Of a stretch of DNA of 64,000 nt, positions 31,184-55,679 are shown one piece after another. A program made the translations under genes and the position numbers. How positions within the stretch are numbered: position 1 is the stretch's first letter; each line of letters begins with the position of its first letter. The stretch is from Candidatus Omnitrophota bacterium (GTDB lineage Bacteria; Omnitrophota; Omnitrophia; Omnitrophales; Aquincolibacteriaceae). The stretch is from assembly GCA_030698625.1 (NCBI GenBank), contig JAUYMS010000042.1:160423-224422 (forward strand). Direction: 5' to 3'. The notes beneath the pieces are model-generated. The model was not told the origin of the DNA, searched no databases, and saw only the letters and a program-made list of their open reading frames with translations.

Positions 31184-31394
31184 CGCAGTACGGAGGGTTT
31201 TTAGTCTGCCGGCAACCACACCAAGCAACTTTTTTCGCCTCTGTGATCTCGACAATAACGGGCGACTTGCCCGTATTCTTCCGCGAGTGACTCCCATCGC
31301 AATAGGGCTGGTTCTCTGACTCACCACACGAGCACCATGCCTTTTTGCCCGGTGTTTCGTCTTTGACATACGGCATATTCTGAATTCCGCTCAT
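31161..31394 (-). CDS. CDGSH-type iron-sulfur domain protein (two CDGSH motifs)
   Basis: CSCGESENQPYCDGSHS and CGCRQTKNPPYCDGTHS. GGGAGG RBS 7 nt upstream of the ATG. Confidence 0.75.
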   Translation of the reverse strand: MSGIQNMPYVKDETPGKKAWCSCGESENQPYCDGSHSRKNTGKSPVIVEITEAKKVAWCGCRQTKNPPYCDGTHSSL

Positions 31395-36834: not shown

Positions 36835-37359
36835 TTACTTCGCCGATTTTACAAACTGAAGCGCAAGCGAATTCATACAATAGCGCTTGCCCGTCGGGTG
36901 GGGTCCGTCTTCAAAAACATGACCCAAATGCGATCCGCATCGGGCGCAATGCACTTCGATGCGCTTCGCAAAAAAACTACGGTCAATCGAAAAACCGATA
37001 TTCTGCTCCGCGATCGGCTCCCAGAAGCTAGGCCATCCTGTATGCGAATCATACTTCACGGCAGAACGAAAGAGCTCTGTGCCGCAAGCAATGCACCGGT
37101 AGATCCCGTTTTCGCCATACTTATTGTACTCACCCGTATAGGCCATCTCCGTTCCGTGCTCGCGCGTTATATGAAAGACCTTGGGGTCAAGAATCTTTCT
37201 CCATTCGTCTTCGCTCTTTTCAATTTTCTCAACTTGCACGAGCTTCTCCTGACTGCTGTCGTAAACGGCTATGGTCTCAGCAGCTCTGACCGAGCCCCGT
37301 CCCAAAAACACTAAAACCAGAACCCCCAAAATAACTTTAAGAATCAAAGTGAATCGCAT
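36835..37359 (-). CDS. msrB: Peptide-methionine (R)-S-oxide reductase MsrB with an N-terminal signal peptide
   Basis: CIACGTELF...HCARCGSHLGHVFEDGP...GKRYCMNS. Hydrophobic N-terminus MRFTLILKVILGVLVLVFLG. Confidence 0.85.
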   Translation of the reverse strand: MRFTLILKVILGVLVLVFLGRGSVRAAETIAVYDSSQEKLVQVEKIEKSEDEWRKILDPKVFHITREHGTEMAYTGEYNKYGENGIYRCIACGTELFRSAVKYDSHTGWPSFWEPIAEQNIGFSIDRSFFAKRIEVHCARCGSHLGHVFEDGPHPTGKRYCMNSLALQFVKSAK

Positions 37360-38021: not shown

Positions 38022-39683
38022 TTAATCGGGACTCAAAGGGTTGGCCATCCCGGAGGGCGGGCTCTTGAATACCGTGCATAATGCCGCACCTCCTGCCCGA
38101 GCCTCACAAAAACCCGATGCCGGCGGCCAGCCCCCTCTTTGCAGCACGGACGGCTCCCAGCGCGACGGCAGCATAATATAGTAATCAAGCGGAACATTCA
38201 GGCCGCGCCTGATGGCAGGTTTATACGGAATAAATCTGTTCCCCAATTCCCTTTTGAGGTAATAGAAACTCGACATCATGCTGCCATCGGCATGCACCGC
38301 TATCGGGCGCGTCATACCCGATTCGCGATAGTGGTCCGCTAAGCACTCCGAGCATGCCCTCAAACTGTTCCCCCAGTAATCGGTTTCATAATAGCCGACC
38401 GCCCCTTTCACATCGCCGACGAGGGCATTGAAATACGTTGCCTGGTACGGGTGATTACGCATCATCCATGCCACGGGTTCCAGGCAGAGAATTCCCAGAA
38501 AAACACAAAGGGCAATTTTGAGATTACGGGTCTTAAGGATTTCAAATAGTCGATCCCATGCCGCCGCAATAAGAACCACCAGCGGCGGGTAGATAAAAAG
38601 CACATGCCTCCAGCCATTATAGAGTTGAGATTTCTGGACTATGATCCAGACCACCGGAAAGACGGACCCGACGAGCAGTACTGTGAGCGAAGTCGGCTTC
38701 AAGTGTTTGAACATATGAATCAATACGGCACCGAGTAGAATGAGCCCAAGCAAAATAAGGATCGGGCTTGAGATCGCAATCCACTTGGGTATGTAGTACC
38801 ACGGGATTTCTGAGGCGAGTATCTTCCTGCCTTCAAACAAAAGGGTATCGCCCGCATTCGTAAAGTGAGCCATTTTTTGCATCGCAAGCCAGGGATGAAT
38901 CAACGGCGACACTAAACCGTAGGGCCAGAAAAGCAGCCCCCCGAAATAGCCGCCGGTGGTAACAGCGCCCAGCACCACGAAACATCGCGGCCATGACACC
39001 TCGCGCCTATACTTGTAACAGCTCCACAAACCGAATACCCATAGGTAAGCCAGCAAGAGAACGCCGCCAATCCGGACACCCAGGGTTACCGCAATAGCAA
39101 CGGCCAAGCCAACCGAGGTTGAAATCCTGGGTCGCGGAAATTGATCTGTGAATTTTATCAGGAGATACAAAAATAGCATGTACCCCATGGCAAATGGGAT
39201 GTCTTTGGGATTATTCATCGCATGCCCCAAAAAGCGCGGTGAAATCGCCAGAAATATCATCGCAAAAAATCCTGCACGCCAGCCCGCAAGGTGTCTTGCC
39301 GCCAAACCCGCGAACAGGATGGCCAAAAAGCCGAACAGCGCATTGATACAATGGCGCGTTTCAAAAATCCACGCCACGGCAAGGTCATCCTGCAACTGCA
39401 GCTGAGCAACCGCATGAATCGAATCAAAGACCGCGCCGTAGATAACGGTGGCGACAACATCAAAGAAGCCGCCGTAAAGATATAGATCCTTAAAACCCAT
39501 AACCTCCCGATCGGCTCCGCCGCTTAAGAAAAACCGCAGAACCAACCGACCGTAATAGGACTGCGCCCAGTCGTCCCAAGTAATACCGAAGTCCAGGCTT
39601 AAAAGGGGCATGGCAACGGCGAGCAGGCCTGCCACCGCGATAAAGGCCAGGGCATAGGGGCGCGGTTTTGCAGAAAGGTTCAT
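38022..39683 (-). CDS. Polytopic membrane GT-C-fold glycosyltransferase (PMT/ArnT-like), putative
   Basis: About 550 aa with at least 10 TM segments and a C-terminal soluble domain. Start chosen at MNLSAKPRPYALAFIAVAGL, adjacent to the dedA stop. Confidence 0.5.
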   Translation of the reverse strand: MNLSAKPRPYALAFIAVAGLLAVAMPLLSLDFGITWDDWAQSYYGRLVLRFFLSGGADREVMGFKDLYLYGGFFDVVATVIYGAVFDSIHAVAQLQLQDDLAVAWIFETRHCINALFGFLAILFAGLAARHLAGWRAGFFAMIFLAISPRFLGHAMNNPKDIPFAMGYMLFLYLLIKFTDQFPRPRISTSVGLAVAIAVTLGVRIGGVLLLAYLWVFGLWSCYKYRREVSWPRCFVVLGAVTTGGYFGGLLFWPYGLVSPLIHPWLAMQKMAHFTNAGDTLLFEGRKILASEIPWYYIPKWIAISSPILILLGLILLGAVLIHMFKHLKPTSLTVLLVGSVFPVVWIIVQKSQLYNGWRHVLFIYPPLVVLIAAAWDRLFEILKTRNLKIALCVFLGILCLEPVAWMMRNHPYQATYFNALVGDVKGAVGYYETDYWGNSLRACSECLADHYRESGMTRPIAVHADGSMMSSFYYLKRELGNRFIPYKPAIRRGLNVPLDYYIMLPSRWEPSVLQRGGWPPASGFCEARAGGAALCTVFKSPPSGMANPLSPD

Positions 39684-40378
39684 TTGCTCATATCCCGGCT
39701 CAAGGCATTTCGGGCAATGCGCCTTAGGTAAAGAACCAATATAATCGCCGCAACCATCCCGCCGATGAGAAGCGCCCACTCCAGAGGAGTCCGCTGGCGG
39801 CCCTGCGCATTCATGGCGGCAAGACTTCCGGTAATCGACCCCAAGTAGACGTAAACTGCGGCTGAGGGAATAGACCCGATGACTGTGGCCAGAAAATAAT
39901 GAAATGCCGGAATTCGAGTGAGGCCGATGATATAGTTTCCGATCAGAAAGGGGAAAATGGGGGTGAGACGGGCAAGTAAAACAACACGCCAGCCTTTCTT
40001 TTCAATTGTCTTATCCATTAGCTCAAACTTTTCGTTCCTCGCGTAGATACGCTCGACCCATCCGCGCGCCAGATATCGGCCGGTCAAGAGCGCCGCTGTA
40101 GATCCTATGCCATGGGCCAGCAGACTAAAGGCCAATCCTTTGAGAACGCCAAAGAGAATGCCCGCCGAAAAGGTAAAAACAAATGAAGGAACAAAAAAGA
40201 TACAGGTAAGGATATAGACGCCCATAAACACGACCGGCCCCCAAGGGCCGAAGTCATCAATCCAGTCCAGGACCTTGGGCAAAATTCCCTGCGTGTTAAG
40301 GTAATAGGCCAAGCTAAGGAGTATGGCCAGGATCATCAAACGAATCCAAAACCGCTGCCCCTTACTTAAAATTGCCAT
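39680..40378 (-). CDS. DedA/TVP38/TMEM64 family membrane protein
   Basis: FVPSFVFTFSAGILFG...LARLTPIFPF...NYIIGLT, hallmarks of the SNARE-associated/DedA family. Confidence 0.8.
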   Translation of the reverse strand: MAILSKGQRFWIRLMILAILLSLAYYLNTQGILPKVLDWIDDFGPWGPVVFMGVYILTCIFFVPSFVFTFSAGILFGVLKGLAFSLLAHGIGSTAALLTGRYLARGWVERIYARNEKFELMDKTIEKKGWRVVLLARLTPIFPFLIGNYIIGLTRIPAFHYFLATVIGSIPSAAVYVYLGSITGSLAAMNAQGRQRTPLEWALLIGGMVAAIILVLYLRRIARNALSRDMSK

Positions 40379-40390
40379 CAGATTCCCCTC

Positions 40391-41440
40391 TCAGACATTT
40401 ATCTGAGTCGGTTGCGGCTGCTTTTCAAAGAGATAATGGGCCACATACCACTCCGCCCCCTCGTGATATCCAAAAAGTTCCGCACAAGCCATAAAAAATA
40501 CACGCCAATAAGCCCACCACTTCTTTGCCTCTTTTCCGTAAGTCTGCTGAAAAAGGGGTTCTATTTCCCGTCTGCACGAATCCATTTTCTCGAGCCACGC
40601 CTTACAGGTCTTTTCGTAATGACTGCCCGAGACCTGCCAAAGGTCTCGCAAGCGGACATCCTCCTGAAACTCCAGGAACAAGTCTTCCGAAGGCATGGTG
40701 CCTCCCGTAAAGAAGTGTCGGGCCATCCAATTGCCGTCGTCTTCCATAGGGTAGAGATAAGGAAATGTCTTATGACAAAAAACATGGACAAAAAGCAGTC
40801 CGTCGTTCTTCAACCATGAGGATACCTTATGAAACAGTTGTTCGTAGTTGCGCATATGCTCGAACATCTCAATCGAGAAAATTCGGTCATATTCGCAGTC
40901 ACTTGAAAACGTATTCATATCGGCAGTGATGATCTTAACATTCTTAAGGTTTCGCCGCTTCGCTTCCGTTTCAATCCACATCTTTTGGGTACGGGAATTG
41001 GATACTCCCGTAATGCAGCTGTCGGGGAATTTTTCGGCAAGGAACAGGGTCAGTGAGCCCCAACCACAGCCGAGGTCCAGAATGTCATAGCCATCCTTTA
41101 TCCGGGCACGGTCAGCACAGAGACCGAGCATCGCTTCCTCGGACGCATCGAGATCAACATCCCCTTCCTCCCAGTAACCGCAGCTGTATTTCAACCTCCC
41201 GCCCAAGACAAGTCTAAAAAATTCAGCCGGCACTTCGTAGTGCTGCGCATTGGCCTCGGCGGTCGCTATGGCGATAGGGCTATGTCTTAGTTCATCAAGA
41301 AGGGTGGAACGGCGGTCGAGTTGGGCGGGGACTCCCCCCAGTGATTCCTGCCGCAACTTTTCCCTAAGTTGTCTTCGTATGCCGATGCGAATCAGAAAAT
41401 CAGGGATGAATCCATGTGTGAGAAGGCCTTCATACCACAT
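40391..41440 (-). CDS. Cyclopropane-fatty-acyl-phospholipid synthase family SAM methyltransferase
   Basis: LDLGCGWGSL...FSIEMFEHM...CRREIE, typical of the CFA/mycolic-acid synthase family. Confidence 0.85.
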   Translation of the reverse strand: MWYEGLLTHGFIPDFLIRIGIRRQLREKLRQESLGGVPAQLDRRSTLLDELRHSPIAIATAEANAQHYEVPAEFFRLVLGGRLKYSCGYWEEGDVDLDASEEAMLGLCADRARIKDGYDILDLGCGWGSLTLFLAEKFPDSCITGVSNSRTQKMWIETEAKRRNLKNVKIITADMNTFSSDCEYDRIFSIEMFEHMRNYEQLFHKVSSWLKNDGLLFVHVFCHKTFPYLYPMEDDGNWMARHFFTGGTMPSEDLFLEFQEDVRLRDLWQVSGSHYEKTCKAWLEKMDSCRREIEPLFQQTYGKEAKKWWAYWRVFFMACAELFGYHEGAEWYVAHYLFEKQPQPTQINV

Positions 41441-41443
41441 GGG

Positions 41444-42304
41444 TCAGGCCTTCGAGGCTGAAGCGGGGTCTTCGTCTCTGGGAAACCACGGAATAAACAT
41501 GTTGGTCGATCTTTGATAACGAAGATACTCATCTCCCCTCGACCGAATAGCTTGTTCCTCTGCCTTCGGAATACCGGTTACATTAAAGAGGAAGTGCAGA
41601 ATAAGTGCGGGGCAGGCAATAACCAGGATGCCGAACGGAGATCCCAAAGAATAGATAAATAAGGCGCACCAGATAAGAAATTCAAAGAAATAGTTCGGAT
41701 GACGCGAATAGAACCACAACCCTTCGCGACACGTCTTCCCTTTGTTTTCAGGATTCGATTTGAAATTCTCGAGCTGCAAGTCGGCAATGCTCTCTCCCGC
41801 GAAGGCCGCCACCCACAGGACAAAACCGAGGCCCTCAAAAAACACAAGCCCCGGACGCACATTATGCGAGGCGATAATAAAAGGAAGCGATAAAAGCGCC
41901 GCCACGGCACCCTGAAGGAGAAAAAAGATAAGCAGTTTCCTTTCTTTCTCTTCACCCCATTTATTTAAAAGCTCCGCGTATCGCGGGTCCTCACCTTTTC
42001 CGGCGACTCGCTTAAATAAGATAAAAAAACCCAATCGCATCCCCCAAAAAACCCCCATAACCGTAACAAAAAACCTGCGCCACTCATAACCCTCGCCCAA
42101 AGTGCCAAAAAAAATCGCCAGAAGGGCTATGAGACCGGCCCATACAGGGTCGACGATACTCGCCTTCTTGATGCGCACCGAGACAAACCACAACGCTGCC
42201 ATTATAGGGAGCGTAATAAACAGAGCCTGGATCAGACCACCAATAGCAAATCCCACTTTGACCTCCTTATCCCTTAGGACTGGCTTGTGAAAGCAGCTTG
42301 TCAC
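41444..42304 (-). CDS. DUF1295 / steroid-5-alpha-reductase-like (ICMT-fold) membrane protein
   Basis: Multi-TM. C-terminal GLWFYSRHPNYFFEFLIW, the signature of the DUF1295 / 3-oxo-5-alpha-steroid 4-dehydrogenase family. Confidence 0.65.
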   Translation of the reverse strand: MTSCFHKPVLRDKEVKVGFAIGGLIQALFITLPIMAALWFVSVRIKKASIVDPVWAGLIALLAIFFGTLGEGYEWRRFFVTVMGVFWGMRLGFFILFKRVAGKGEDPRYAELLNKWGEEKERKLLIFFLLQGAVAALLSLPFIIASHNVRPGLVFFEGLGFVLWVAAFAGESIADLQLENFKSNPENKGKTCREGLWFYSRHPNYFFEFLIWCALFIYSLGSPFGILVIACPALILHFLFNVTGIPKAEEQAIRSRGDEYLRYQRSTNMFIPWFPRDEDPASASKA

Positions 42305-43727
42305 GCAACTTACCGCTCAAGGCCCATTCAGACACCCAGATGCCGAAATAGGCACGCGCAAAATCTTCGCCCGGGACTATCGCCTTTTCCACGCCGTTTA
42401 AGAGCAGCGAGGTTCCGCGTTCCGGTTCATAGCGCAATTCATAGCGATCGCCCTTTTCGACATCCTCATAGGCATCATTAATGATTCGAAGACGGTCTCG
42501 AATTGCCTGCAGGTTGACGGTAGGGTTCTTTCCAAGCGCCCGGTCGGCTGCCTTTACAAATTGCGGCTGTTTTAAACCGCGATGGTATTCAATAACTAGC
42601 GACATAGGTACTTCTCCGAGGACCTGATCCTGTGCGGCCACATCCGCAGGAAGATATAAAGCCGCGGTATACACGTCCAACGTGAGAAACTCCAGTAATC
42701 CTATTCCCCGCAACGGCAAGGCATTGCCGGCTACGGCTGTCGTGCTTTCAAAGCAAGAGTTATTAAGACACTGCCCTTCGGCAGCGGAAGCGGCAAAAAC
42801 CTGTGCGGGTGTAAGTAGAACCATGAGAACCAGCGCCGCTGCGATTGCATGCTTGGATACCGCCCGCGCTTCCTCATAGATATCCTGTGGCGGCCTTCTC
42901 AGATCCCAAACAACCCCTATCCACGATAGGGCCGTCAACACATAATGGGTCACGTCAATCTCCCACCAATAAAATCCCTGCCGTTCCGAAGACGGGCATC
43001 TGTGATGATTATTGTGCCAGCCCTCGCCCATCGTTAAAAGGGCAACCCAGATATTATTACGACCATCATCTTTATTCGCAAAACGTTTTGATCCAAACAA
43101 ATGGCTGAAAGAATTCACCGCAAAGGTCACGTGGAAAAGAAAGACCGTACTGATAAAAAATCCCCAGACGATTACCTGACCAGCCGTTAATCCGATATCC
43201 GGCGCAAAACGTTCGAGACAAATTCCGAGAACTGCCACTACGGAAAAAAAGAATAAGGCCGGGATTTTTTGATTGCGATTCAGATACCGCAGTTCCGGGT
43301 ATACCGCAAAGTCGGCCACGTGAGGGTCGGGATGAAGGTTTGCGTGCTTCTTTGTCATGAACCATCCCACATGGGACCAGAAGAAACCATGAATGATGGG
43401 CGAATGCGGATCCAGTTCGGTATCCGCATAGCGATGATGATTCCGATGATGCGCGGCCCACCACAGAGCATCCTTCTGCAAGGAACAGGCTCCGAGAAAA
43501 GCCAGTATAAACTGGAATATCCGTGATGTTTTAAACGAGCGATGTGAGAAATACCGATGATAACCCGCCGTTAGCCCGAACATCCGCGGTAGCAGGGTTA
43601 CCAGAAATACAACGATAGCCGCACCGCTCATACCCGTAACAAAGGCAAGCAGACACCCCGCGTGCATCAACACAAAAGGGACATTTCCCCAAAACTCAAT
43701 AGTCTCCTCTTTCGGCCGGGGACTCAA
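42267..43727 (-). CDS. Membrane fatty-acid desaturase (stearoyl-CoA-desaturase type His boxes) fused to a C-terminal chalcone-isomerase-like domain
   Basis: HRYFSH, HRNHHRY and HNNHH boxes in the first ~280 aa. The last ~190 aa have no TM segments (LGEVPMSLVIEYHRGL...). Confidence 0.7.
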   Translation of the reverse strand: MSPRPKEETIEFWGNVPFVLMHAGCLLAFVTGMSGAAIVVFLVTLLPRMFGLTAGYHRYFSHRSFKTSRIFQFILAFLGACSLQKDALWWAAHHRNHHRYADTELDPHSPIIHGFFWSHVGWFMTKKHANLHPDPHVADFAVYPELRYLNRNQKIPALFFFSVVAVLGICLERFAPDIGLTAGQVIVWGFFISTVFLFHVTFAVNSFSHLFGSKRFANKDDGRNNIWVALLTMGEGWHNNHHRCPSSERQGFYWWEIDVTHYVLTALSWIGVVWDLRRPPQDIYEEARAVSKHAIAAALVLMVLLTPAQVFAASAAEGQCLNNSCFESTTAVAGNALPLRGIGLLEFLTLDVYTAALYLPADVAAQDQVLGEVPMSLVIEYHRGLKQPQFVKAADRALGKNPTVNLQAIRDRLRIINDAYEDVEKGDRYELRYEPERGTSLLLNGVEKAIVPGEDFARAYFGIWVSEWALSGKLRDKLLSQASPKG

Positions 43728-45739
43728 ATGGGTAGCGATTCCACGCGCACTGCTGCTTCCGGTTTCCTGTCTAAGGAGCGGTTACCGGTTCGCGATAGTA
43801 CCAACTGAAGATCGTTCAAGTGCCTCGCTTCGAATGCGGCCTCGCAATATGAAAAATAATACTGCCACACCCGCAGGGTCTTACGGGAGAAACCGAGCGC
43901 CTCCGCCTGTGTCTTTTGTTCCAGCAAGCGCTCCCGCCACAGGGCAAGTGTCCGCGCGTAATGGGGGCCTATATTATCCAACTCTTCGACATAAAAGGAA
44001 GAAGATTGAGTCATTGCTCGGCAGAGCGCTGAAAGCGACGGGAGATGTCCCCCGGGGAAAATATACTTTTGAATCCAGTCGCAACCCCTCCTGTAGGAAT
44101 CGTAACGCTGATCGGGGATGGTAATCACCTGGAGCACCACAACGCCGTCGGGTTTGAGCAACTCGTCGAAGCGCTTAAATAATTTGCCTAAATGCTCCCG
44201 GCCTACGGCTTCCAACATTTCAATGGATACAATGCGGTCAAACTTGCCCCGGACATGCCGGTAGTCGCAGAGTTGAATATCAATGCGGTCGCTGTACCCG
44301 GCCTCGTCAATCCGTTTGCGCGCAAACGCGAGCTGTTCTTTGGAGAGGGTGATTCCCGTAACCCGGCACCCGGTCGTGCGTACCGCCTCAATAGCAAAGG
44401 CACCCCATCCGCATCCGATCTCAAGCACGTGATCTTGCTCTGAGATCCTTGCCTTTCGCAAGATAGACCGAATTTTATTTTTCTGGGCCGCAGCCAAGTC
44501 CCCCCCCTCTTTTTCGAATTGACCGCAAGAATACGTCATGCTCTTATCCAGAAAGAGCTCATAGAAATTATTGCTTAAATCATAATGCGCTTCAATGTTT
44601 CTTTTACTACCTCGAACGGTATTTCCATGCCTCAAATGCCGCCAGCGATTAAGCCTTGCGCCGAGCTCCTCCAGGAGGGAGACCTTCCTCTCAAGATAAG
44701 GTTTATTATCAACCAGCAGTCCAATCACCGCCGTCACGTCGGATGAGTCCCAATCCTGTTCTACATACCCTTCACCAAAACCGATGCCGCCATCCCGCAC
44801 AATACGGCAGAAAAAATTATAGTCCCGGATTCGAATAACCGCTTTCTTGCCCGCTTCACTGCCGCCCCATGTTTCCGAGCGGCCATCCGGGTACGTAAGC
44901 GTAAGGGATCCTCGCCTGATCTTCGAAAGATAGCGTAGAACAATTCGCATAGCAATACGCTGTAAAAAGTTGGGGAGCGCGGTTCGTATGGTCATAGGGT
45001 TATCTACCGGGGGTTTCTTGAACACACTAATTTTTTTACCGTAAAAAAGTTTGGCCGCCTGGATATGGATGCGTGGTAACGTCATGACGGCCGTCATCGG
45101 GTAGCGGAGGAGAGTCCCGACAAGATTTGCCGTCGTAATTGGGACGGCGTTCCCCCACCAGCGTGAAACCAATGCAGCGTGTCCCTCTCGAAACAAGTTG
45201 ACCTGAAGATCTGCCTCAGCGCCCAACGACGAGAGTTTAAATTCGTACTCTCCCGCCCTGTCAAAGAAGGGCGAGACGTGGAAAACCTTTGGCGCTCGGT
45301 AATGGCCGTCTTTGGCCGAAAAATTATCCTTTAAGATATAGAGGTGTGTCTCGCCAAACGTATTGCTCACTTCGGCAACGGCACAGCCTAACTTTCCGCC
45401 TGAAGTATAGCAATAATAGAAACTTGCCGGGTTAAAAATCGTTCCCAGAAAACGGGCACAGGTGACAAGTTCTACGCGGGCAATACCTCGCGCACAATCA
45501 TGCGCTTCGAGAAATCGGAGCAGTTTCTCTTTTGTAGTACCCGGCCCTCGGTCAAGATAGTCTTTATCGTAAAGAGACACAACGCCGAAGTGATTATAGG
45601 AAAATAGCCGCACGCCCTCAGCGAGAATCGGCAGTTCGTCTAGATCGAACACGTAGAAATAGCTGGGGTACTCAAACTTATGCTGCACCGGTTGTAGACG
45701 CGCATGCATCAAAGTACCGCGATAGATGCGTGAGTTCAT
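43724..45739 (-). CDS. DUF1365 N-terminal domain fused to a cyclopropane-fatty-acyl-phospholipid-synthase-like C-terminal domain
   Basis: N-terminus YRGTLMHARLQPVQHKFEYP... is DUF1365-like. The C-terminus has LEIGCGWGAF...SIEMLEAVG, the CFAS motifs. Confidence 0.75.
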   Translation of the reverse strand: MNSRIYRGTLMHARLQPVQHKFEYPSYFYVFDLDELPILAEGVRLFSYNHFGVVSLYDKDYLDRGPGTTKEKLLRFLEAHDCARGIARVELVTCARFLGTIFNPASFYYCYTSGGKLGCAVAEVSNTFGETHLYILKDNFSAKDGHYRAPKVFHVSPFFDRAGEYEFKLSSLGAEADLQVNLFREGHAALVSRWWGNAVPITTANLVGTLLRYPMTAVMTLPRIHIQAAKLFYGKKISVFKKPPVDNPMTIRTALPNFLQRIAMRIVLRYLSKIRRGSLTLTYPDGRSETWGGSEAGKKAVIRIRDYNFFCRIVRDGGIGFGEGYVEQDWDSSDVTAVIGLLVDNKPYLERKVSLLEELGARLNRWRHLRHGNTVRGSKRNIEAHYDLSNNFYELFLDKSMTYSCGQFEKEGGDLAAAQKNKIRSILRKARISEQDHVLEIGCGWGAFAIEAVRTTGCRVTGITLSKEQLAFARKRIDEAGYSDRIDIQLCDYRHVRGKFDRIVSIEMLEAVGREHLGKLFKRFDELLKPDGVVVLQVITIPDQRYDSYRRGCDWIQKYIFPGGHLPSLSALCRAMTQSSSFYVEELDNIGPHYARTLALWRERLLEQKTQAEALGFSRKTLRVWQYYFSYCEAAFEARHLNDLQLVLSRTGNRSLDRKPEAAVRVESLPI

Positions 45740-47010
45740 AAGCTAACCCCGAAGTGTTCCGCGACACGCACCCCTGACAGGACTGCATCTTCATGAAATC
45801 CATAGCCAAAATAACTCCCGCAAAAAAAAGTTCGCGCTGCTCCATTTAGAACAGAGAGCTCGTCTTGGGTGCGAACCGAATCATTCGTATAACAGGGATG
45901 CTCATAATCGATTCTTCGCAGGACCCTTTCTTCCGCCAGGGCATCGTGGCGATTGAGCGACACAAAATAGGGATTGATCGTTTGTAAATTCTGAAGACGA
46001 TTCATGTGATACGTCAGCGAAACGGGCGCTCCCGGCAATTCGTCCTCACGAATATAGTTCCAAGAGGCCCACGCGCGAGGCGCTTTGGGCATAGCGCTGA
46101 CGTCAGAGTGCAGAACCGCCTGATTTTTCGTATAACGCCACGCCCCCAAAAGTCGCCTTTCGTCCCGCGACGGATCGGCCAGTACATTCAAGGCCTCATC
46201 GGCATGCATTGCAATGACAACATAATCATAGGCATTTTCCGCTTTTCCGTCTACGGCAACATAAACCTTGTCGAGCGCCCTACGCACGCGAGAGACATTC
46301 GCATTCGTGTACATCCTCCCCGAAAATTGCTCGCGAACAGCTCGCACATACGTGTGGCTTCCCCCGGGTACGTACATCCAGCGGGGCCTTTCCTTAAGCG
46401 CCAGTAAACCGTGATTGTCAAAAAAACGGAGGAAGGTTTCTGCGGGAAAATCCAACATCTCATCGCAAGGTGTTGACCAGATCGCGGCACCCATCGGAAT
46501 GAGATACCAGTCCATAAACTGCTTCGAAAAGTTTCCCTTTTCCAGGTAGGTCCCCAACGTGGTCCGTCCGAGCAGCCCGGCCTTCAAATCGCGCTGAGAC
46601 TCAGAATTAAAGCGAAGGATATCGGCAATCATGCGGTAAAAAGACGGGCGCAGCATATTGCGCTTCTGGGCAAAAAGACCGTTCGGGACATAGCTTGAAT
46701 ACTCGATGCCGTCGCGCCTCGAACTAAAACTAAAAGACATATCACTCGGACTGCCCGTAATCCCCAAGCGGGACAGAAAACGTATAAATGTAGGGTAATT
46801 GCGATCATTATAGACAATGAACCCCGTATCAACAGGGGTCCCGGCATCGGGACCATGCTCGATGACGATCGTATTGGTGTGCCCTCCAAGGTACGCGTTT
46901 TTTTCATAGAGCGTTACGTCGTAACGCTGTCCCAGTAAGTGGGCCGCCGCAAGGCCCGCAGCCCCCGTGCCCGCAATTGCGATTTTTGCATCTGCGCGGT
47001 ACTCAGGCAT
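45736..47010 (-). CDS. FAD/NAD(P)-binding amine-oxidase-like oxidoreductase (the partner usually found in CFAS/DUF1365 clusters)
   Basis: N-terminal IAIAGTGAAGLAAAHLL...YEKNAYLGGH dinucleotide-binding motif. Confidence 0.75.
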   Translation of the reverse strand: MPEYRADAKIAIAGTGAAGLAAAHLLGQRYDVTLYEKNAYLGGHTNTIVIEHGPDAGTPVDTGFIVYNDRNYPTFIRFLSRLGITGSPSDMSFSFSSRRDGIEYSSYVPNGLFAQKRNMLRPSFYRMIADILRFNSESQRDLKAGLLGRTTLGTYLEKGNFSKQFMDWYLIPMGAAIWSTPCDEMLDFPAETFLRFFDNHGLLALKERPRWMYVPGGSHTYVRAVREQFSGRMYTNANVSRVRRALDKVYVAVDGKAENAYDYVVIAMHADEALNVLADPSRDERRLLGAWRYTKNQAVLHSDVSAMPKAPRAWASWNYIREDELPGAPVSLTYHMNRLQNLQTINPYFVSLNRHDALAEERVLRRIDYEHPCYTNDSVRTQDELSVLNGAARTFFCGSYFGYGFHEDAVLSGVRVAEHFGVSL

Positions 47011-50000
47011 GGATAATTTCTTCCATCGTCGAATTCTTTAGAAGCTCCGGCTCAATGCGGACAGCCTCACGCATAGCATTGCGCATCTCATCCCCCCTGC
47101 CCATTTTGTCATATATCCGTGCTAGATTAATATAACCCGACGAGCTGTTTGGATACAGACGGATAAAACTGCGAAACGCTTCTGCCGCGACCTCATATTT
47201 TTCCTGCTTCTCAGAGACCCAGCCCAATTCCAGATAAGCCGTCGGATGGAGCGGGTAGCTCTTCACAAACCTGCGAACAGATGCGAGCTTTTCCTCATCA
47301 CTGCCGATCGATACTTGGATACTTACGATCCTTTCCAAAGATCCAAAATGCCTTCCCTTCGACCTGATAATTTCCTCATAAACTTTCAGAGCTTCCGGAA
47401 GTTGATGTGCCTTAAAAAGAGCATCGGCGAAAGCCTGGAGGTGTCTTTCGCGTTCCGTCAGTTCTACAGCCCTGCGAAGGTATCCCACGGCACTCTGCGA
47501 GTCTCCTTGTTCCATAAGAACTTTACCGAGGTAGTAATTACCATCCGCGGACTCTGGGTTCGCCTGAACAGCCTGCGTCAGATGTCTGGCTGCTTCAAGT
47601 TTATTATCCGTAAGATAATGCAGAATACCTGCCACCTCTAGGTTTCCCGGATGGTCCGGATTGGTCTCGACAGCCATGTTCAGCACGCGCCGTGCCATCT
47701 GGTAAAATTTGCCTGAAGCGTATCCCTTAGCAACCTCATGCAACAGAGCGACATTTTTCTCCGGCGGCGGGTTGATGTTTTCCATGGGTGGGAAAACCTT
47801 TGTTCTGGCACGATTCAACCATTCGAAATTCATTTTGCCGGTTTTCTCGTAAAGATGTCGCGGGGCTGAGTATTCCAAAATGGGTCGGTTATCACGATGT
47901 ATGGGCGCCTCCCGACTGAGCAGCCGCAGCTCGGTATCATCAAGCCAAAACGTCGCTAAGAAATTGCCGGGCGTTCGCAGGCCGTAGGGCCCTAAATCTT
48001 CGACAAGCTGAGGATTTTCATAGCCTCCCTGAATGCGGGCGAAGTCGACCGGCCGTTTTTCATTGCGGCCGATTAGCATTAAGTCCGGGTAGTCGGATCG
48101 CCAGAGCTGAACATGAGCGAAAGCCTCGCTGAAAGTTCTAACAATCGTCGCAATGTCCTCAGACCCCATGTTATAAGCGTGTAGCCACTGGCACGCAACC
48201 CCTCCCGGCTTCAGGCGGCTGCTCATTGTTTGGAAGTTTTCCAAAGAAAAAAGATTTGCGACGCCCGCCATCCAGGGGTTTGACGGCTCCGAGATAATAA
48301 TGTCATAAAGATCGGGCCTGACAAGAAGGGCATTGCGCCCGTCGTTGACAAAAAGCTTCACACGCGGATCTCTGAGCACGTTTCGATTCATGAAGAGGAA
48401 GAACTCGGACGCCTCTACCACGGCGGGTTCCAATTCGACCACATGCAAAACTTCCGCCGGATGGGATGCCGCAGCCGCAAGCGTCGACGCGCTGCCCAAA
48501 CCGATGATCAATACCTTTTTCGGATTGGGGTGAAGGAGCATGGGAAGATGCCCCAAATAATATTGCGTCAAGGCATCACCGTCTGAGGCATCCGTCTTTC
48601 CGTTGACAGTCAGCGCGATATTGTCCCTAGCGCGCGTAACGGACACGGTAGCGCTCGGGCCATCTTTATGGAACAGTGTTCCTCTGTTGAGAAAGTTCCT
48701 CTGAAATTCCTCATGGCTCAGGCCAACACTTTTCCACGGTTTGGTCACGGAATCACTCGAGTCCATCACCGAAAGATTCCAAGGTTTCACAAGCGAAACG
48801 GCAATCCCAACCGCAAGAAACAATGATGTTCCGGCAGCCAGTCGCTTCCAAACAAAGTTAGGGCGATGCAAGAAAAAGGCAGTGACACCCACCCCGGCAT
48901 TAATAAGTCCCGCGGTCAGTAAAGTCTTCTGAATTCCGATCGCGGGGATGATCAAAAAACCCGTCAGGGCCGAGCCCAGGATTGCGCCTATCGTATTAAA
49001 AAAGTACGCCGCGCCGACTTCGGTTCCGATAGCTGCCGTTCGGCGGTAGATATGGATAAAGCATGTAAAGGCCGCTCCAATCATCAGCGTAGGCATAAAC
49101 ATGACCGCCGAGCAGAGCAAAAATCTGCCAAACTCAAGAACAAGCGAATTCCCTCGAGCCCAAACGAAGAGCTGTATGAAAAAATAAGGAATATCGTCAA
49201 AGAAATTGATACCGATAAGCGATGAGAGAGCCGTAAGCATTTGCAAAGCGGAGAAGGTCATCAAATCGGCTTTAAATCGTTTGGAAAAAACGCTGAACAG
49301 GAAACTTCCCAAGGCTATTCCCAGGAGAAAGGTAGCCAGCATCACCGAAAAGGCGTAAACGGAACTACCGAGAACCGTCGCCATAACCCTTGTCCAGCCG
49401 ACTTCGTAGATCATCGAGACCGCCCCTGATAAACTGAAGAGACAGAGCAGCACCGGTGCTTTTACGCTCTGCTGTCCCGCGGCGGGCGGACTTGCCTGCG
49501 ATTGGGCTTCGTCATCAACAGCTGCGGCCTCAGGCGCATAGTAGCAGCAGACCCCGTAGATCATAAAGTTTATAGCCCCTGTCAGTAGGACCGTCTGCCA
49601 CAGCCCCAGAGCATAAATAGCATAGAAGCCGCTGAACAAGACACCGATGACCGCGCCCAGAGTATTCAAGGCATACAAAAGCCCGACATATCTTGCGGTA
49701 TCCCTTTTCTGACGCACAAAGAACTTCGAAACAACGGGCAGGGTGCCCCCCATCAGGAAAGAAGGGATAAAGAGGACGGTAAAGGCCACAATAAATTTGA
49801 ACAGGCTCGCCTGCATGAATTCAGGATCGACGCCGTGATAAAAAACGATATTAAGACCGTCGATCAGTTTCCATATCAAAGGAGTAATCAAGGCATAGAA
49901 TCCGACACCGGCTTCCAGCAACCCGTAGGTTGCGACCGGCTCCCCCTTGGCATCAATTTTCTTGCCGAAGTACAACGCGCCAAGACCAAGCCCCGCCATA

Positions 50001-50149
50001 TAACTGGACAAAACCGTGCTGGTTGCAAAAGTAGTATTGCCAAACACCAGTGACATCACTTTCAGCCAGGCGATCTCATAGACGAGGCCGCATAAACCCG
50101 ACACAAAGAAACATGCGAGGATTACGGAACGAACGCGGGGAATTTTCAC
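47003..50149 (-). CDS. Polytopic membrane domain fused to a spermidine-synthase-like aminopropyltransferase domain and C-terminal TPR repeats
   Basis: About 12 TM helices in the N-terminal half. VLIIGLGSAST...DIIISEPSNPW, the SpeE-family motifs. C-terminal TPR units. Confidence 0.75.
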   Translation of the reverse strand: MKIPRVRSVILACFFVSGLCGLVYEIAWLKVMSLVFGNTTFATSTVLSSYMAGLGLGALYFGKKIDAKGEPVATYGLLEAGVGFYALITPLIWKLIDGLNIVFYHGVDPEFMQASLFKFIVAFTVLFIPSFLMGGTLPVVSKFFVRQKRDTARYVGLLYALNTLGAVIGVLFSGFYAIYALGLWQTVLLTGAINFMIYGVCCYYAPEAAAVDDEAQSQASPPAAGQQSVKAPVLLCLFSLSGAVSMIYEVGWTRVMATVLGSSVYAFSVMLATFLLGIALGSFLFSVFSKRFKADLMTFSALQMLTALSSLIGINFFDDIPYFFIQLFVWARGNSLVLEFGRFLLCSAVMFMPTLMIGAAFTCFIHIYRRTAAIGTEVGAAYFFNTIGAILGSALTGFLIIPAIGIQKTLLTAGLINAGVGVTAFFLHRPNFVWKRLAAGTSLFLAVGIAVSLVKPWNLSVMDSSDSVTKPWKSVGLSHEEFQRNFLNRGTLFHKDGPSATVSVTRARDNIALTVNGKTDASDGDALTQYYLGHLPMLLHPNPKKVLIIGLGSASTLAAAASHPAEVLHVVELEPAVVEASEFFLFMNRNVLRDPRVKLFVNDGRNALLVRPDLYDIIISEPSNPWMAGVANLFSLENFQTMSSRLKPGGVACQWLHAYNMGSEDIATIVRTFSEAFAHVQLWRSDYPDLMLIGRNEKRPVDFARIQGGYENPQLVEDLGPYGLRTPGNFLATFWLDDTELRLLSREAPIHRDNRPILEYSAPRHLYEKTGKMNFEWLNRARTKVFPPMENINPPPEKNVALLHEVAKGYASGKFYQMARRVLNMAVETNPDHPGNLEVAGILHYLTDNKLEAARHLTQAVQANPESADGNYYLGKVLMEQGDSQSAVGYLRRAVELTERERHLQAFADALFKAHQLPEALKVYEEIIRSKGRHFGSLERIVSIQVSIGSDEEKLASVRRFVKSYPLHPTAYLELGWVSEKQEKYEVAAEAFRSFIRLYPNSSSGYINLARIYDKMGRGDEMRNAMREAVRIEPELLKNSTMEEIIHA

Positions 50150-52657: not shown

Positions 52658-52747
52658 GACATGCTCCTAAAAAAACAGCGCAGTCGCCGGAGAGATCTAC
52701 GGGTGGGATTTATTTGAAATTGTCGGAATCTTGGCAACAATCAAACG

Positions 52748-52969
52748 TTAGCCGTTAGATTCCCGCAGAGATACCTTCACAGAGCGGCCGGAGCGAGCTA
52801 GGCTGATCTTTTCTTCACGCGCCAGCCATCCGAGAGCCTGGTTAAAAAGCGAAGCATCGGATACGCCTACTTCCTTCTGCACCGTGGAAGACGGTTTTGC
52901 ACCCTGATTCTCTAAGGCCCTGTAAATTTTTCCTGCGACATCACCGATTGCATAATCTTGTTCGCTCAT
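52748..52969 (-). CDS. Small winged-helix protein (DUF2582-like)
   Basis: 73 aa with a helix-turn-helix-like core. Located between the two GH57 genes. Confidence 0.45.
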   Translation of the reverse strand: MSEQDYAIGDVAGKIYRALENQGAKPSSTVQKEVGVSDASLFNQALGWLAREEKISLARSGRSVKVSLRESNG

Positions 52970-52994
52970 GGTTCATTTCTCCTTTCTCTTAGAA

Positions 52995-54581: not shown

Positions 54582-54584
54582 AAC

Positions 54585-55679
54585 TTACTTAGGCGCCTCC
54601 GGTTTCAAATATGGCGCAGGGCGATCCGTATTTCTTTCAACCTTAGGAACAATCGTCCGTTCTTCCTTATCGTCGGCAGAAGTCGCAGTAGCATCAAGGA
54701 CAATCTTCCCGTCAGGAAGGGCAAAACGCATCGAAAAGGTTCCGTCGGGACGCAGCTTAATGTCCTGTCCCTGAAGCGTGACCTTTGCGTCGGGCTCAGT
54801 AGCACCGTAGACAATAAGTTCACAATCAAGATGAAACCAGAAGCCGCGCTCCTGCTTCTTTATGGGGCTGGAGATGCTGGATACATGGGATGCCCCGGAT
54901 CCGGAGGTAATGGCGCCGCTCAACCGCTGCTCCATCTGGCGACGCAAATCAAGGGAACTCTGCCCCACTGCAAATCCGCCCGAAAGAGCATACATCTTAT
55001 CGAAATCAATCCCCATCCAACGCTCATCAAGCTCATCCGACATGGAGTCACGAGGCACGGTCACTTCATTAGAACGTGCGAGAGCAACAAAGCGTCCGTC
55101 CTCATGCAATAAGCCGATCTCAACGACATAACCGCGCCCGGGTTCAACTTCGATATACCACTGGCGGGCAAGTCCAAAAAGCGGTAAATCACAGAAGGAA
55201 GCGTCTTCGGAGGGGTTGGTAATGTCGTAAACTCGAAGAACGGATTTGACCTGCTCCCGCCTTGCATCCAGTTGAGCCAACGCCCGTTCTTCGTGATCAC
55301 GCTGAATCTCCCAATAGGAAAACATCCAATGAGGGTCGCGAACCATCAAGTAAATGTGATTGTCACCATAACCGCCCGGCAGTTCCCGTTCCGGTATCGG
55401 CATGTAGGATGGCGCTTGTAACTCTTGAACCGGTTCGGATTTCGGAGAGGGCGCGTGGGTAATAGCCTTTTTCGACTTCCTTGCTGCTGACTTTTTAGCT
55501 GAAAGAGGGGCTCTGCGAATCTTCCTAAAAGCCTGCGTTACGACACTCCGCTTTCTCCGCGGCCTGCCCGTAGTTACACGATTGGACGACTTCTTAGACG
55601 CGCCCGAAGCCTTACGGCGTGCGGTCGCCTTCTTTGAAGAGACACGTCGACTCGTCCTTTTTTCGCCAACCGAACGCAT
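54585..55679 (-). CDS. DUF4912-like protein with a Lys/Arg-rich N-terminal tail (a frequent GH57 neighbour)
   Basis: The first ~80 aa are strongly basic (KK/RR-rich). Central WMFSYWEI motif. Adjacent to the GH57 branching enzyme. Confidence 0.5.
   Translation of the reverse strand: MRSVGEKRTSRRVSSKKATARRKASGASKKSSNRVTTGRPRRKRSVVTQAFRKIRRAPLSAKKSAARKSKKAITHAPSPKSEPVQELQAPSYMPIPERELPGGYGDNHIYLMVRDPHWMFSYWEIQRDHEERALAQLDARREQVKSVLRVYDITNPSEDASFCDLPLFGLARQWYIEVEPGRGYVVEIGLLHEDGRFVALARSNEVTVPRDSMSDELDERWMGIDFDKMYALSGGFAVGQSSLDLRRQMEQRLSGAITSGSGASHVSSISSPIKKQERGFWFHLDCELIVYGATEPDAKVTLQGQDIKLRPDGTFSMRFALPDGKIVLDATATSADDKEERTIVPKVERNTDRPAPYLKPEAPK

Follow-up and report, generated by a model that had tools for sequence, protein, structure and literature searches.

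Organization of the locus

The window analyzed here is a 64,000-nucleotide stretch of an uncultured Omnitrophota contig. Its minus strand carries a compact set of genes that spans 47010 to 39680 and codes, in this order, for a UfaD-like oxidoreductase, a DUF1365::CFA-synthase-family fusion, a desaturase fused to a chalcone-isomerase (CHI)-like domain, a DUF1295 protein, a second methyltransferase and a DedA protein, as follows:

45736..47010, minus strand: FAD amine-oxidase-family protein, UfaD-like, 424 aa (Pfam Amino_oxidase and NAD_binding_8)
43724..45739, minus strand: 671-aa fusion of DUF1365 (UfaO-like) and a CFA-synthase-family (UfaM-like) part (Pfam DUF1365 and CMAS)
45011..45727, minus strand: DUF1365 (UfaO-like) domain, aa 5-243
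43787..44923, minus strand: complete CFA-synthase-like module, aa 273-651, made up of a lipid-binding N-terminal part and a SAM methyltransferase
42267..43727, minus strand: membrane desaturase of the SCD/DesC type (delta-9 family) fused to a CHI-fold domain, 486 aa in all (Pfam FA_desaturase and Chalcone_3)
42894..43721, minus strand: desaturase domain, aa 3-278 (His boxes, hydropathy, SCD1 alignment)
42792..42854, minus strand: signal-peptide-like hydrophobic segment, aa ~292-312, ending VFA|AS (alignment, hydropathy)
42291..42752, minus strand: Chalcone_3 (chalcone-isomerase-fold) domain, aa 326-479, predicted extracytoplasmic (PF16036, AF2 model)
41444..42256, minus strand: polytopic membrane protein with DUF1295, 270 aa when counted from the revised GTG start (longest ORF 41444-42304; PF06966)
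40391..41440, minus strand: CNMT-like SAM methyltransferase, putatively FufM-like, 349 aa (CMAS, 6gkv match)
39680..40378, minus strand: DedA/VTT-domain membrane protein, 232 aa (PF09335)
38022-39779 (longest ORF), minus strand: GT-C-like gene (weak Pfam PMT_2)

Apart from PMT_2, every score in the cluster lies far above its Pfam gathering cut-off, and the domain content is therefore not due to chance. The scan bore out the original prediction in placing DUF1365 at the N-terminus of the 671-aa protein and a CHI-like domain at the C-terminus of the desaturase. The coordinates of the five tightly packed minus-strand ORFs were likewise exact, but the 38-nt overlap reported among them is a start-codon artefact at DUF1295, which arose because the longest ORF was taken; translation likely begins at 42256, at a GTG with AAGGAGG ahead of it, and the gap is then ~10 nt. 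A 4-nt ATGA overlap joins the stop of the UfaD-like gene to the start of the 671-aa gene, and the GT-C gene most likely starts at the ATG at 39683, with an ATGA overlap with DedA, as opposed to the ~100 nt of overlap given by the longest ORF. DedA and the GT-C gene had been placed upstream; on the coding strand both lie downstream of the cluster. Relatives keep the gene order Amino_oxidase, DUF1365::CMAS, desaturase, Chalcone_3, (DUF1475), DUF1295, second CMAS, DedA.

Components of the cluster

The product of 45736-47010 matches Amino_oxidase with 69 bits and NAD_binding_8 with 48 bits, and among solved structures it comes closest to the amine oxidase LkcE, which aligns over the full length with 127 bits. 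Its gene lies directly upstream of the DUF1365 gene in nearly all of 83 related loci. The adjoining 671-aa protein, 100% identical to the NCBI entry 'DUF1365 family protein [Candidatus Omnitrophota bacterium]', combines DUF1365 at aa 5-243 (233.6 bits), whose predicted structure is a closed beta-barrel like those of ligand-binding and ether-ring-forming barrels, with CMAS at aa 379-643 (292 bits). By domain content, synteny and published descriptions, the oxidoreductase and the two halves of this protein correspond to UfaD, UfaO and UfaM, as had been proposed. The CFA synthases 5z9o, 7qos and 6bqc align to the CFA-synthase-like module over both their domains, and the E. coli CFA synthase positions C139, E239, I268 and Y317 are conserved in it. 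In contrast, His266, the bicarbonate ligand in cyclopropane synthases, is replaced by Gln537, and Gln occupies this position in 82 of 82 DUF1365-linked homologues.

In the 486-aa protein, FA_desaturase (aa 39-261, 68 bits) precedes Chalcone_3 (aa 326-479, 101 bits). The desaturase domain displays four hydrophobic helices in a hydropathy scan and the His boxes HRYFSH, HRNHH and HNNHH, and mammalian stearoyl-CoA desaturase 1 (4ymk, 4zyo) aligns to it with 112-118 bits. It shares 52-68% identity with stand-alone Omnitrophica and cyanobacterial proteins, including a DesC1, whose labels as acyl-CoA or delta-9 desaturases are those given by their sources. These features mark it as an SCD/DesC-type desaturase, which most likely supplies the cis double bond of the substrate and does not carry out a novel modification; its regiospecificity is presumably delta-9, going by family membership. 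A homologous desaturase gene adjoins the ufaD-like gene in ~25 of the 83 loci, from many phyla.

The 349-aa methyltransferase (CMAS, 142 bits) had been taken for a second CFA synthase. It is no CFAS paralog in the narrow sense but is CNMT-like: among solved structures, coclaurine N-methyltransferase matches it best (6gkv; 287 bits, aa 9-340), E. coli CFA synthase reaches only 105 bits, and it misses every NCBIfam CFA-synthase cut-off. We infer that it is FufM-like; FufM, which methylates the furan ring, reportedly resembles enzymes of this type and shares 37.9% identity with LIME1/AT4G33110, a methyltransferase of Arabidopsis (PMC10940516). Its gene is paired in ~30 related loci with that for the DUF1295 protein, which has six hydrophobic segments by hydropathy and is part of a superfamily of membrane reductases and methyltransferases (PF06966, 223 bits; Steroid_dh, 30 bits, over the cut-off). 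DedA (PF09335/VTT, 90 bits) is a lineage-specific member of the cluster, and likewise follows the CNMT-like gene in two related loci (L002 and L003) and on the contig encoding the fusion protein P0122. The DedA family includes lipid transporters.

A candidate furan fatty acid pathway

[quoted passage not shown] We consider it reasonably probable that the present locus represents the bacterial FuFA cluster in its Omnitrophota form, enlarged into a self-contained O2-dependent operon that tailors the acyl chains of membrane lipids. From the family assignments, which are themselves established, we infer the following reactions and order. First, the SCD/DesC-type domain would use O2 to convert a saturated acyl chain into a cis-monoene, whose double bond would presumably lie at delta-9. 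Second, the UfaM-like half of the 671-aa protein would transfer a methyl group from SAM to give a methyl-branched trans-monoene, in which the UfaD-like FAD enzyme would then form a second double bond, yielding a conjugated methyl-diene. The UfaO-like DUF1365 beta-barrel half would next insert one oxygen atom from O2 and close the furan ring, on which the CNMT-like enzyme may finally place a second methyl. If so, saturated acyl chains would enter the pathway encoded by the operon and leave it as furan fatty acids of the mono- or dimethyl type, which are antioxidants.

The oxidative- and light-stress genes in the neighborhoods of these clusters count in favor of the FuFA reading: one related cluster (L001) is flanked by genes for glutathione peroxidase, TspO and photolyase, an AhpC gene lies near that of L002, and a signal-peptide-bearing MsrB closes the gene string in the window. 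The RpoE/ChrR control initially envisaged is not evidenced here: of the window's ORFs that were scanned, none was recognized as an ECF sigma or ChrR gene.

Other observations are less readily accommodated. The fused DUF1365::CMAS gene is also carried by strict anaerobes (Desulfosarcina, Desulfospira), which fits poorly with an O2-requiring pathway unless the gene answers exposure to O2. Along with the His266-to-Gln replacement, which sets the DUF1365-linked clade apart from cyclopropane synthases, and the dispensability for FuFA of the syntenic CFAS-like RSP1089 of R. sphaeroides, this could point to a non-furan product, such as a saturated or conjugated acid with a methyl branch at mid-chain. 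Here, the CFAS-like domain would methylate the delta-9 double bond and DUF1295 would reduce the resulting alkene, with the amine-oxidase and DUF1365 parts performing other chemistry. [quoted passage not shown] However, BfaA is annotated as an FAD oxidase and TmpA resembles geranylgeranyl reductases, neither being of the amine-oxidase type nor a DUF1295 protein (PMC7791843). Moreover, all three FuFA-sufficient components are tightly linked in this locus, two of them in one polypeptide, and the syntenic CFAS-family genes of R. palustris and Halomonas are UfaM. We regard a non-furan product as rather unlikely.

Two gene fusions of different standing

In both fusions the joined parts correspond to neighboring genes that in other loci overlap or lie almost end to end. 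The two had been described together as unusual, which holds for desaturase::CHI but not for DUF1365::CMAS, a widespread fusion that public databases already annotate. The latter architecture is found in 120 of the 120 best matches (90%-identity clusters) of the 671-aa protein and across at least 8 phylum-level groups; as a single ORF it was confirmed in 12 of 82 loci. Species genomes with single-ORF fusions bear the labels Desulfosarcina, Desulfospira, Desulfuromonadales, Vulcanimicrobiota, Auribacterota, Sedimentisphaerales and Bdellovibrionota. The UfaO::UfaM join is an old, successful and widely distributed architecture.

For desaturase::CHI we saw only three fused clusters, namely the 486-aa protein itself (P0121), P0122 and P0123, and a single fused protein among the best 150 CHI-domain relatives from 1.84 billion representatives. 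The three are scattered in a tree and do not form one group; they probably arose independently. In the relatives L002 and L003 the two genes are separate, overlapping by 4 nt in the former and lying 1 nt apart in the latter, and the same CHI domain is elsewhere fused to the small membrane proteins DUF2878 and DUF1475.

The AlphaFold2 model of the CHI-fold domain (pLDDT 94.2) is matched best in the PDB by chalcone isomerases and by FAP1 and FAP3, fatty-acid-binding proteins of Arabidopsis with the CHI fold, at Foldseek TM-scores of 0.72-0.78 to CHI, AtFAP1, AtFAP3 and Aim18p. Stand-alone Chalcone_3 relatives bear a signal peptide and a CxxxxCF motif, whose cysteine pair lies just N-terminal of the CHI domain and is invariant in 12 aligned sequences. 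The fifth hydrophobic segment of the 486-aa fusion (aa ~292-312 in the hydropathy scan) aligns with these signal peptides and ends in a -3/-1 small-residue cleavage motif (VFA|AS, with AFA|AP in P0122 and AFA|GA in P0123). On this alignment, the CHI-like part stems from a normally separate, signal-peptide-bearing neighbor gene. Since the fusion retains both segment and cleavage motif, the CHI domain is predicted to be periplasmic, and is probably not the soluble cytoplasmic module first supposed; it is possibly cleaved off the desaturase to yield a separate exported protein. We posit that desaturase::CHI represents a rare, apparently recurrent read-through of adjoining genes, which would be tolerated because the C-terminus of the desaturase is cytoplasmic and the signal peptide of the neighbor could serve as an N-in/C-out helix. 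As a guess, the exported CHI-fold protein may work on the periplasmic side, where it would handle the modified lipid or move it.

This topology bears directly on the proposal that through both fusions methylation, desaturation and oxygenation are physically coupled in a cytoplasmic machine, in which a soluble CHI module hands fatty acid to the desaturase. Fatty-acid-binding proteins do occur within the CHI fold, and the conservation of UfaO::UfaM over many phyla is expected if coupling consecutive enzymes pays. Further, an engineered BfaA-B fusion raised flux in a related pathway (PMC7791843), and plant AT3G23510 fuses UfaD-like and UfaM-like parts (PMC10940516). Nevertheless, UfaD acts between UfaM and UfaO, making those two non-consecutive in the known pathway. 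The signal peptide, cleavage motif and cysteine pair would set the CHI domain in the periplasm, away from the desaturase active site in the cytoplasm; equally, the rarity and scatter of desaturase::CHI and the other membrane partners of the CHI domain argue against the proposal. The proposal is thus improbable as a whole, being weakened for desaturase::CHI while retaining the breadth of UfaO::UfaM in its favor. That either fusion is an artefact of assembly, frameshift or gene calling is scarcely credible, for although the source is a metagenome-assembled genome and the two public gene calls for desaturase::CHI do not agree on the start (they give 466 and 468 aa, while the longest ORF has 486 aa), neither ORF is interrupted in the window or in another assembly, Logan SRR13727534, both architectures recur in unrelated samples and organisms, and a conserved IEFWGNVPF upstream of the shorter annotated starts supports the longer ORF.

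Comparison with known systems

In Chlamydomonas, the genes induced by singlet oxygen include DUF1365 and DUF1295, together with two that are annotated as CFA, of which one carries a coclaurine N-methyltransferase annotation as well. Among bacteria, the CFAS-family gene adjoining ufaO in R. sphaeroides (RSP1089) is dispensable for FuFA (PMC7380195), so that synteny alone does not prove UfaM function. Elsewhere the neighbor is UfaM: the CFAS-family neighbor gene PSPTO_1116 of Pseudomonas syringae is the best homologue of RSP_2144, that is UfaM (PMC5507510), and the Halomonas UfaM gene, consecutive with ufaD and ufaO, yields 11-methyloctadec-12-enoate in E. coli (PMC12089945). If the substrate of the Omnitrophota operon is a delta-9 acid, its products would be FuFAs of the 7M5/7M7 and 7D5/7D7 types, as opposed to the 9M5 derived from cis-vaccenate. 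In R. palustris, RPA2571-2570-2569 stand in the same order as the Omnitrophota trio, and UfaM is encoded there by the CFAS-family neighbor of DUF1365.

A probable variant of the furan fatty acid gene cluster

The locus is a variant of the known furan fatty acid (FuFA) cluster and no new kind of system. Furan fatty acids are potent scavengers of radicals and of singlet oxygen and, to our knowledge, their biosynthesis has been worked out in two alpha-proteobacteria only. In this pathway, the methylase UfaM, a member of the cyclopropane-synthase family (CFAS/CMAS), converts cis-vaccenate to 11-methyl-12-trans-18:1, the FAD enzyme UfaD (RSP1091) makes the 10,12-diene, and the DUF1365 protein UfaO (RSP1090) inserts an oxygen atom from O2 and closes the furan ring (Lemke et al., 2020; PMC7380195). 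[quoted passage not shown] As for the CFAS-family genes linked to ufaD and ufaO, the syntenic CFAS-like RSP1089 of R. sphaeroides is dispensable (PMC7380195), the one consecutive with ufaD and ufaO in Halomonas gives the UfaM product in E. coli (PMC12089945), and UfaM (RSP_2144) has its best P. syringae homologue in the gene adjoining DUF1365 (PMC5507510).

The five genes under study carry the following Pfam domains, and every domain named in the original prediction is borne out:

45736-47010, minus strand: Amino_oxidase + NAD_binding_8 (UfaD-like)
43724-45739, minus strand: DUF1365 + CMAS in one 671-aa ORF
42267-43727, minus strand: FA_desaturase + Chalcone_3 in one 486-aa ORF
41444-42304 (longest ORF), minus strand: DUF1295
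40391-41440, minus strand: second CMAS-family protein (349 aa)

Gene string and boundaries

These five are part of a string of 11 co-directional genes that runs along the minus strand from 52657 to 36835, with gaps of at most ~12 nt or overlaps of 4-16 nt; the UfaD-like gene, for instance, overlaps the DUF1365-containing gene by 4 nt. A 38-nt overlap noted earlier is a longest-ORF artefact: the most likely start of DUF1295 is the GTG at 42256, which follows an AAGGAGG ribosome-binding site, and the overlap vanishes because of this shift. The second CMAS gene is followed by a VTT/DedA gene, a weak GT-C-like gene, a Methyltransf_23 gene and then a signal-peptide-bearing MsrB, which places the DedA and GT-C genes, originally described as upstream, downstream of the cluster. 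For the GT-C gene, the ATG at 39683 is the most likely start, which makes it overlap DedA in an ATGA. A promoter scan returned 18 sites against 16.8 expected in shuffled sequence, which is no excess, and a terminator scan 40 sites against 24.1 in shuffles, many of them intragenic. Only a strong terminator-like hairpin at 35779-35758 and another at 52689-52676 stood out, and the operon boundaries therefore rest on gene spacing.

At the two sides of the cluster the string includes other kinds of proteins. The last gene of the string (36835-37359, minus strand) shares 16 nt with the Methyltransf_23 gene before it. Its product, an MsrB (SelR domain) with a signal peptide or anchor at the N-terminus, is an exported enzyme that repairs oxidative damage, and the gene appears to be transcribed together with the cluster. 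On the other side, the gene at 47003-50149 (minus strand) codes for a 1048-aa protein that combines an MFS-like membrane region with a spermidine-synthase domain and TPR repeats; the last 8 nt of this gene, with its stop, are shared with the beginning of the UfaD-like gene, and no such gene is found at this position in the related loci L001-L003. Further away are a glycogen-type gene set (50153-55679 and 63098-63994, minus strand), consisting of a GH57 + DUF3536 protein (834 aa), a GH57 branching enzyme with BE_C, a DUF4912 protein and, at the window edge, the C-terminal part of a glycogen phosphorylase, and, ~9 kb downstream of the cluster, a gene for a YceI-like protein (30551-31369, minus strand), whose family includes polyisoprenoid-binding proteins.

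The DUF1365-methylase fusion

The fusion of DUF1365 with the CMAS domain is real but ordinary. The 671-aa protein is 100% identical to one recorded at NCBI on a 253-kb contig of a metagenome-assembled Candidatus Omnitrophota bacterium. It covers positions 1-233 of the 235 in the DUF1365 profile (PF07103; 233.6 bits, where the cut-off is 25), and its CMAS part (292 bits) aligns along its full length with both domains of CFA synthases. When a collection of 5.8 billion proteins was searched with it, each of the best-scoring 120 clusters at 90% identity carried both PF07103 and PF02353, in proteins of 642-691 aa with source names from Omnitrophota, Verrucomicrobiae, Kiritimatiellia, Marinimicrobia and the cultured Geoalkalibacter ferrihydriticus. 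We also surveyed DUF1365/CMAS loci by scanning one genome per species and re-deriving the ORFs in 83 loci. One ORF spans the two domains in 12 of these, under genome labels that include Desulfosarcina, Desulfuromonadales, Vulcanimicrobiota, Auribacterota, Desulfospira joergensenii DSM 10085, Sedimentisphaerales and Bdellovibrionota; the domains are encoded by adjacent separate genes in 70 others, among them loci of Proteobacteria, Acidobacteria, Verrucomicrobia, Leptospira and Bacteroidia. Almost every related locus has an amine-oxidase-family gene beside its DUF1365 gene. We rejected the idea that the unfused pairs are a single frame with one stop codon, reflecting read-through or a recent split: they share a frame in 28 of 70 cases, against a chance expectation of about one-third, and normal start codons follow. 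Such natural UfaO-methylase fusions amount to Rosetta-stone evidence that the CMAS domain shares a pathway with UfaO.

Four of the five residues of the bicarbonate site of E. coli Cfa are kept in the CMAS domain, with C139, E239, I268 and Y317 corresponding to C405, E510, I541 and Y594 of the 671-aa protein, and the fifth, His266, is replaced by Gln537 (codon near 44129-44131, in the CFA-synthase-like module 43787-44923). This histidine, a bicarbonate ligand, is present in the cyclopropane synthases of E. coli, L. acidophilus and Aquifex, and glutamine occupies its position in 82/82 of the DUF1365-linked CFAS-family genes or domains extracted from loci L001-L083. The Gln-for-His change may be a marker that separates UfaM-type methylases from cyclopropane synthases, and might help in telling the methylases of this clade apart from the latter. 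The fusion scores below the cut-offs of the NCBIfam cyclopropane-synthase models, with 276 bits for PRK11705 (cut-off 400) and 300 bits for the Brucella-type model (cut-off 600), as does the 349-aa protein, with 159 and 125 bits, respectively.

The desaturase and its chalcone isomerase-like domain

The N-terminal part of the 486-aa protein is, judged by its sequence, a delta-9-family desaturase of the stearoyl-CoA desaturase (SCD)/DesC type. It has His boxes at 57 (HRYFSH), 94 (HRNHH) and 238 (HNNHH) and two helical hairpins (four helices), matches stearoyl-CoA desaturase 1 (SCD1) with 112-118 bits, and is 52-68% identical to stand-alone proteins from Omnitrophica and cyanobacteria whose source names are acyl-CoA or delta-9 desaturase, one DesC1 among them. 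A homologous desaturase gene adjoins the ufaD-like gene in ~25 of the 83 loci, which come from many phyla.

The C-terminal part is confidently modeled as a chalcone isomerase (CHI) fold. It matches Chalcone_3 (PF16036) with 101 bits, its AF2 model has a pLDDT of 94.2, and Foldseek returned chalcone isomerases, FAP1 and FAP3 with probability 1.0 and TM-scores of 0.72-0.78; individual TM-scores are 0.72 to FAP1 and FAP3, 0.71 to Aim18p and 0.60 to Aim46p. Besides fatty-acid binders, this fold includes enzymes and heme-binding proteins (Aim18p and Aim46p). Stand-alone Chalcone_3 proteins have an N-terminal signal peptide followed by an invariant CxxxxCF motif. This signal peptide is still recognizable in the window protein, where it forms a fifth hydrophobic segment (aa ~292-312) with VFA|AS at its end, and the same feature is seen in the other two fused proteins, P0122 (AFA|AP) and P0123 (AFA|GA). 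The termini of SCD-type desaturases are cytoplasmic, and the retained segment would run N-in/C-out, so the CHI domain is predicted to lie in the periplasm, where it may be released by signal peptidase. This speaks against the physically coupled cytoplasmic machine that was first envisaged.

We counted fusions with an exhaustive HMMER search of 1.84 billion representatives because a word-indexed search with the CHI domain, which returned 24 stand-alone proteins, missed the identical fused protein and is unfit for this purpose. Only one fused protein is found among the best 150 relatives of the CHI domain. Of the two fusions initially regarded as unusual, the desaturase-CHI one is indeed rare, with three clusters seen, whereas the DUF1365-CMAS one is common. 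The three fused proteins are scattered in a rough tree of the desaturase domain, and their distribution suggests independent read-through events. In the close relatives L002 and L003 the desaturase and CHI parts are separate, nearly abutting or overlapping genes, in the order desaturase, Chalcone_3, DUF1475, DUF1295, coclaurine N-methyltransferase (CNMT)-like and DedA. Chalcone_3 domains are also fused behind DUF2878 (P0400, P0403) and DUF1475 (P0274), which are other small membrane proteins; the CHI-fold protein seems to have been joined repeatedly to whichever gene precedes it.

The second methyltransferase, DUF1295 and DUF1475

The 349-aa protein had been taken for a second CFAS paralog. 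It belongs instead to the CNMT-like branch of the CMAS superfamily and does not have the N-terminal lipid-binding domain of CFA synthases: it matches coclaurine N-methyltransferase (6gkv) with 287 bits over aa 9-340, and pavine and tetrahydroprotoberberine N-methyltransferases with 200-258 bits, as against only 105 bits for E. coli Cfa (6bqc). The Arabidopsis methyltransferase LIME1 (AT4G33110) is a CNMT-like enzyme too. FufM is reported to be 37.9% identical to it (PMC10940516). The gene of the 349-aa protein, 45-57% identical across phyla, is accompanied by DUF1295 in ~30 of the 83 loci, in keeping with the occurrence of FufM in a subset of ufa-bearing organisms. From these matches, the link from FufM to LIME1 and this distribution we infer that the 349-aa protein is FufM-like. 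A small DUF1475 gene, which neither the window nor L001 has, lies between Chalcone_3 and DUF1295 in most close relatives (L002, 9476-9808; L003, 9492-9836; and the P0122 contig).

Stress-related neighborhoods, regulation and anaerobes

The same cluster, including the desaturase-CHI fusion, occurs in an Omnitrophica MAG (GCA_016929445.1; L001, 2756-12986). Upstream are genes for a glutathione peroxidase and an NAD-epimerase/DUF2867 protein, and downstream those for TspO, a DNA photolyase and a LysR regulator. The glutathione peroxidase, TspO and photolyase on its flanks make this a light and oxidative-stress context, and AhpC is found near the cluster in L002. In proteobacteria the core singlet-oxygen regulon includes the genes for photolyase, UfaM, UfaD and UfaO (PMC5507510). 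Genes induced by singlet oxygen in Chlamydomonas code for DUF1365, DUF1295 and two CFA-annotated proteins, of which one bears a coclaurine N-methyltransferase annotation as well. The original prediction had likened the trio to an RpoE/ChrR-regulated cluster of Rhodobacter; no sigma-70 r2/r4 or ChrR-type family, and hence no ECF sigma/ChrR pair, was recognized in a scan of suitably sized ORFs from the 64-kb window, and such a pair may be encoded elsewhere in the genome. This mode of control is a trait of the proteobacterial regulon and not of the FuFA pathway itself.

A ufaD-like gene followed by a fused DUF1365-CMAS gene is also present in a Desulfosarcina MAG (L004) and in Desulfospira joergensenii DSM 10085 (L010). 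These are sulfate reducers regarded as strict anaerobes, yet the known UfaD and UfaO reactions need O2.

Predicted pathway and its implications

We consider it probable that the cluster converts saturated acyl chains to a delta-9 monoene, and this via a methyl-monoene and a methyl-diene to mono- and dimethyl furan acids. The delta-9-family desaturase would here supply the cis double bond needed by the methylase. The main rival reading, in which the cluster makes a non-furan methyl-branched or conjugated product, appears rather unlikely to us; the amine oxidase, DUF1365 and CFAS-family trio comprises the same three families as the ufa pathway in the gene order of R. palustris, and its initial assignment to that pathway stands. 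Building on the furan product, one may conceive of the eight conserved genes as a complete module, triggered by O2, in which ordinary saturated acyl chains of the membrane are made into dimethyl FuFAs of an unusual positional series (7M5/7D5-type, derived from the delta-9 bond). A DedA flippase and a secreted CHI-fold lipid carrier would deliver these to the outer leaflet or to the outer membrane, where they would serve as a sacrificial antioxidant shield, and this would take place in Omnitrophota, in sulfate reducers and in other presumed anaerobes. As a whole, this proposal is speculative and improbable, but if true it would provide the first functions for DUF1295, DUF1475 and the bacterial Chalcone_3 proteins.

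The pathway genes are spread far beyond the characterized cases, including candidate phyla and nominal anaerobes, and have a fixed set of uncharacterized partners: the SCD/DesC-type desaturase, the secreted CHI-fold protein, DUF1295 or DUF1475, the CNMT-like methylase and DedA. The interest of the locus is chiefly comparative: besides these accessory genes, it lies in the association with a delta-9-family desaturase, the glutamine that marks the DUF1365-linked methylases, the secreted CHI-fold partner, and the finding that Omnitrophota and sulfate reducers have genes for a lipid pathway that requires O2.

Comparison with known systems

The closest parallels are the ufaD-ufaO-ufaM systems of R. 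palustris (RPA2571-2569), Cereibacter sphaeroides (RSP1091/RSP1090/RSP2144) and Halomonas sp. YLGW01, with which the cluster shares the three protein families. R. palustris has the same succession of amine oxidase, DUF1365 and CFAS-family genes, and the three consecutive genes of Halomonas agree with it. An O2 dependence is expected to be shared with these systems, and relatives of the window cluster share their association with oxidative- and light-stress genes. Unlike in the known systems, DUF1365 and the methylase form one polypeptide, the operon adds the SCD/DesC-type desaturase, the CHI-fold protein, DUF1295, the CNMT-like methyltransferase and DedA, the SDR (RSP1087) and lipoprotein (RSP1088) genes of C. 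sphaeroides are not part of it, and the host is an uncultured Omnitrophota bacterium.

The added components have parallels of their own. The methyltransferase resembles FufM (RPA0924) and LIME1 in belonging to the CNMT-like branch, with the likeness to FufM running via LIME1; its gene is clustered with UfaD-, UfaO- and UfaM-like genes, and its position beside DUF1295 is the conserved one. The desaturase shares three His boxes and four transmembrane helices with SCD1 and cyanobacterial DesC, but differs from them in its C-terminal signal-peptide-like helix and CHI-fold domain, and in being embedded in a ufa-type operon. With the plant FAP1/FAP3 and the yeast hemoproteins Aim18p/Aim46p, the CHI domain has the fold in common at a sequence identity of only 12-17%, and its bacterial Chalcone_3 relatives, unlike these proteins, are of a secreted type with the CxxxxCF motif.

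BfaB/BfaA and TmpB/TmpA likewise pair a CFAS-family enzyme, which methylates a lipid-borne delta-9 monoene, with a redox partner from a neighboring gene. However, these 10-methyl pathways yield a saturated branched product, have no DUF1365 and use reductases of other flavoprotein families, and we dismiss them as true relatives and regard the likeness as a chemical analogy only (PMC7791843). Finally, Arabidopsis AT3G23510 (AtUFAMD1) is a natural fusion of UfaD-like and UfaM-like proteins (PMC10940516). In both cases the CFAS-family methylase has an enzyme of its own pathway as fusion partner, the amine oxidase in plants and DUF1365 in the window.
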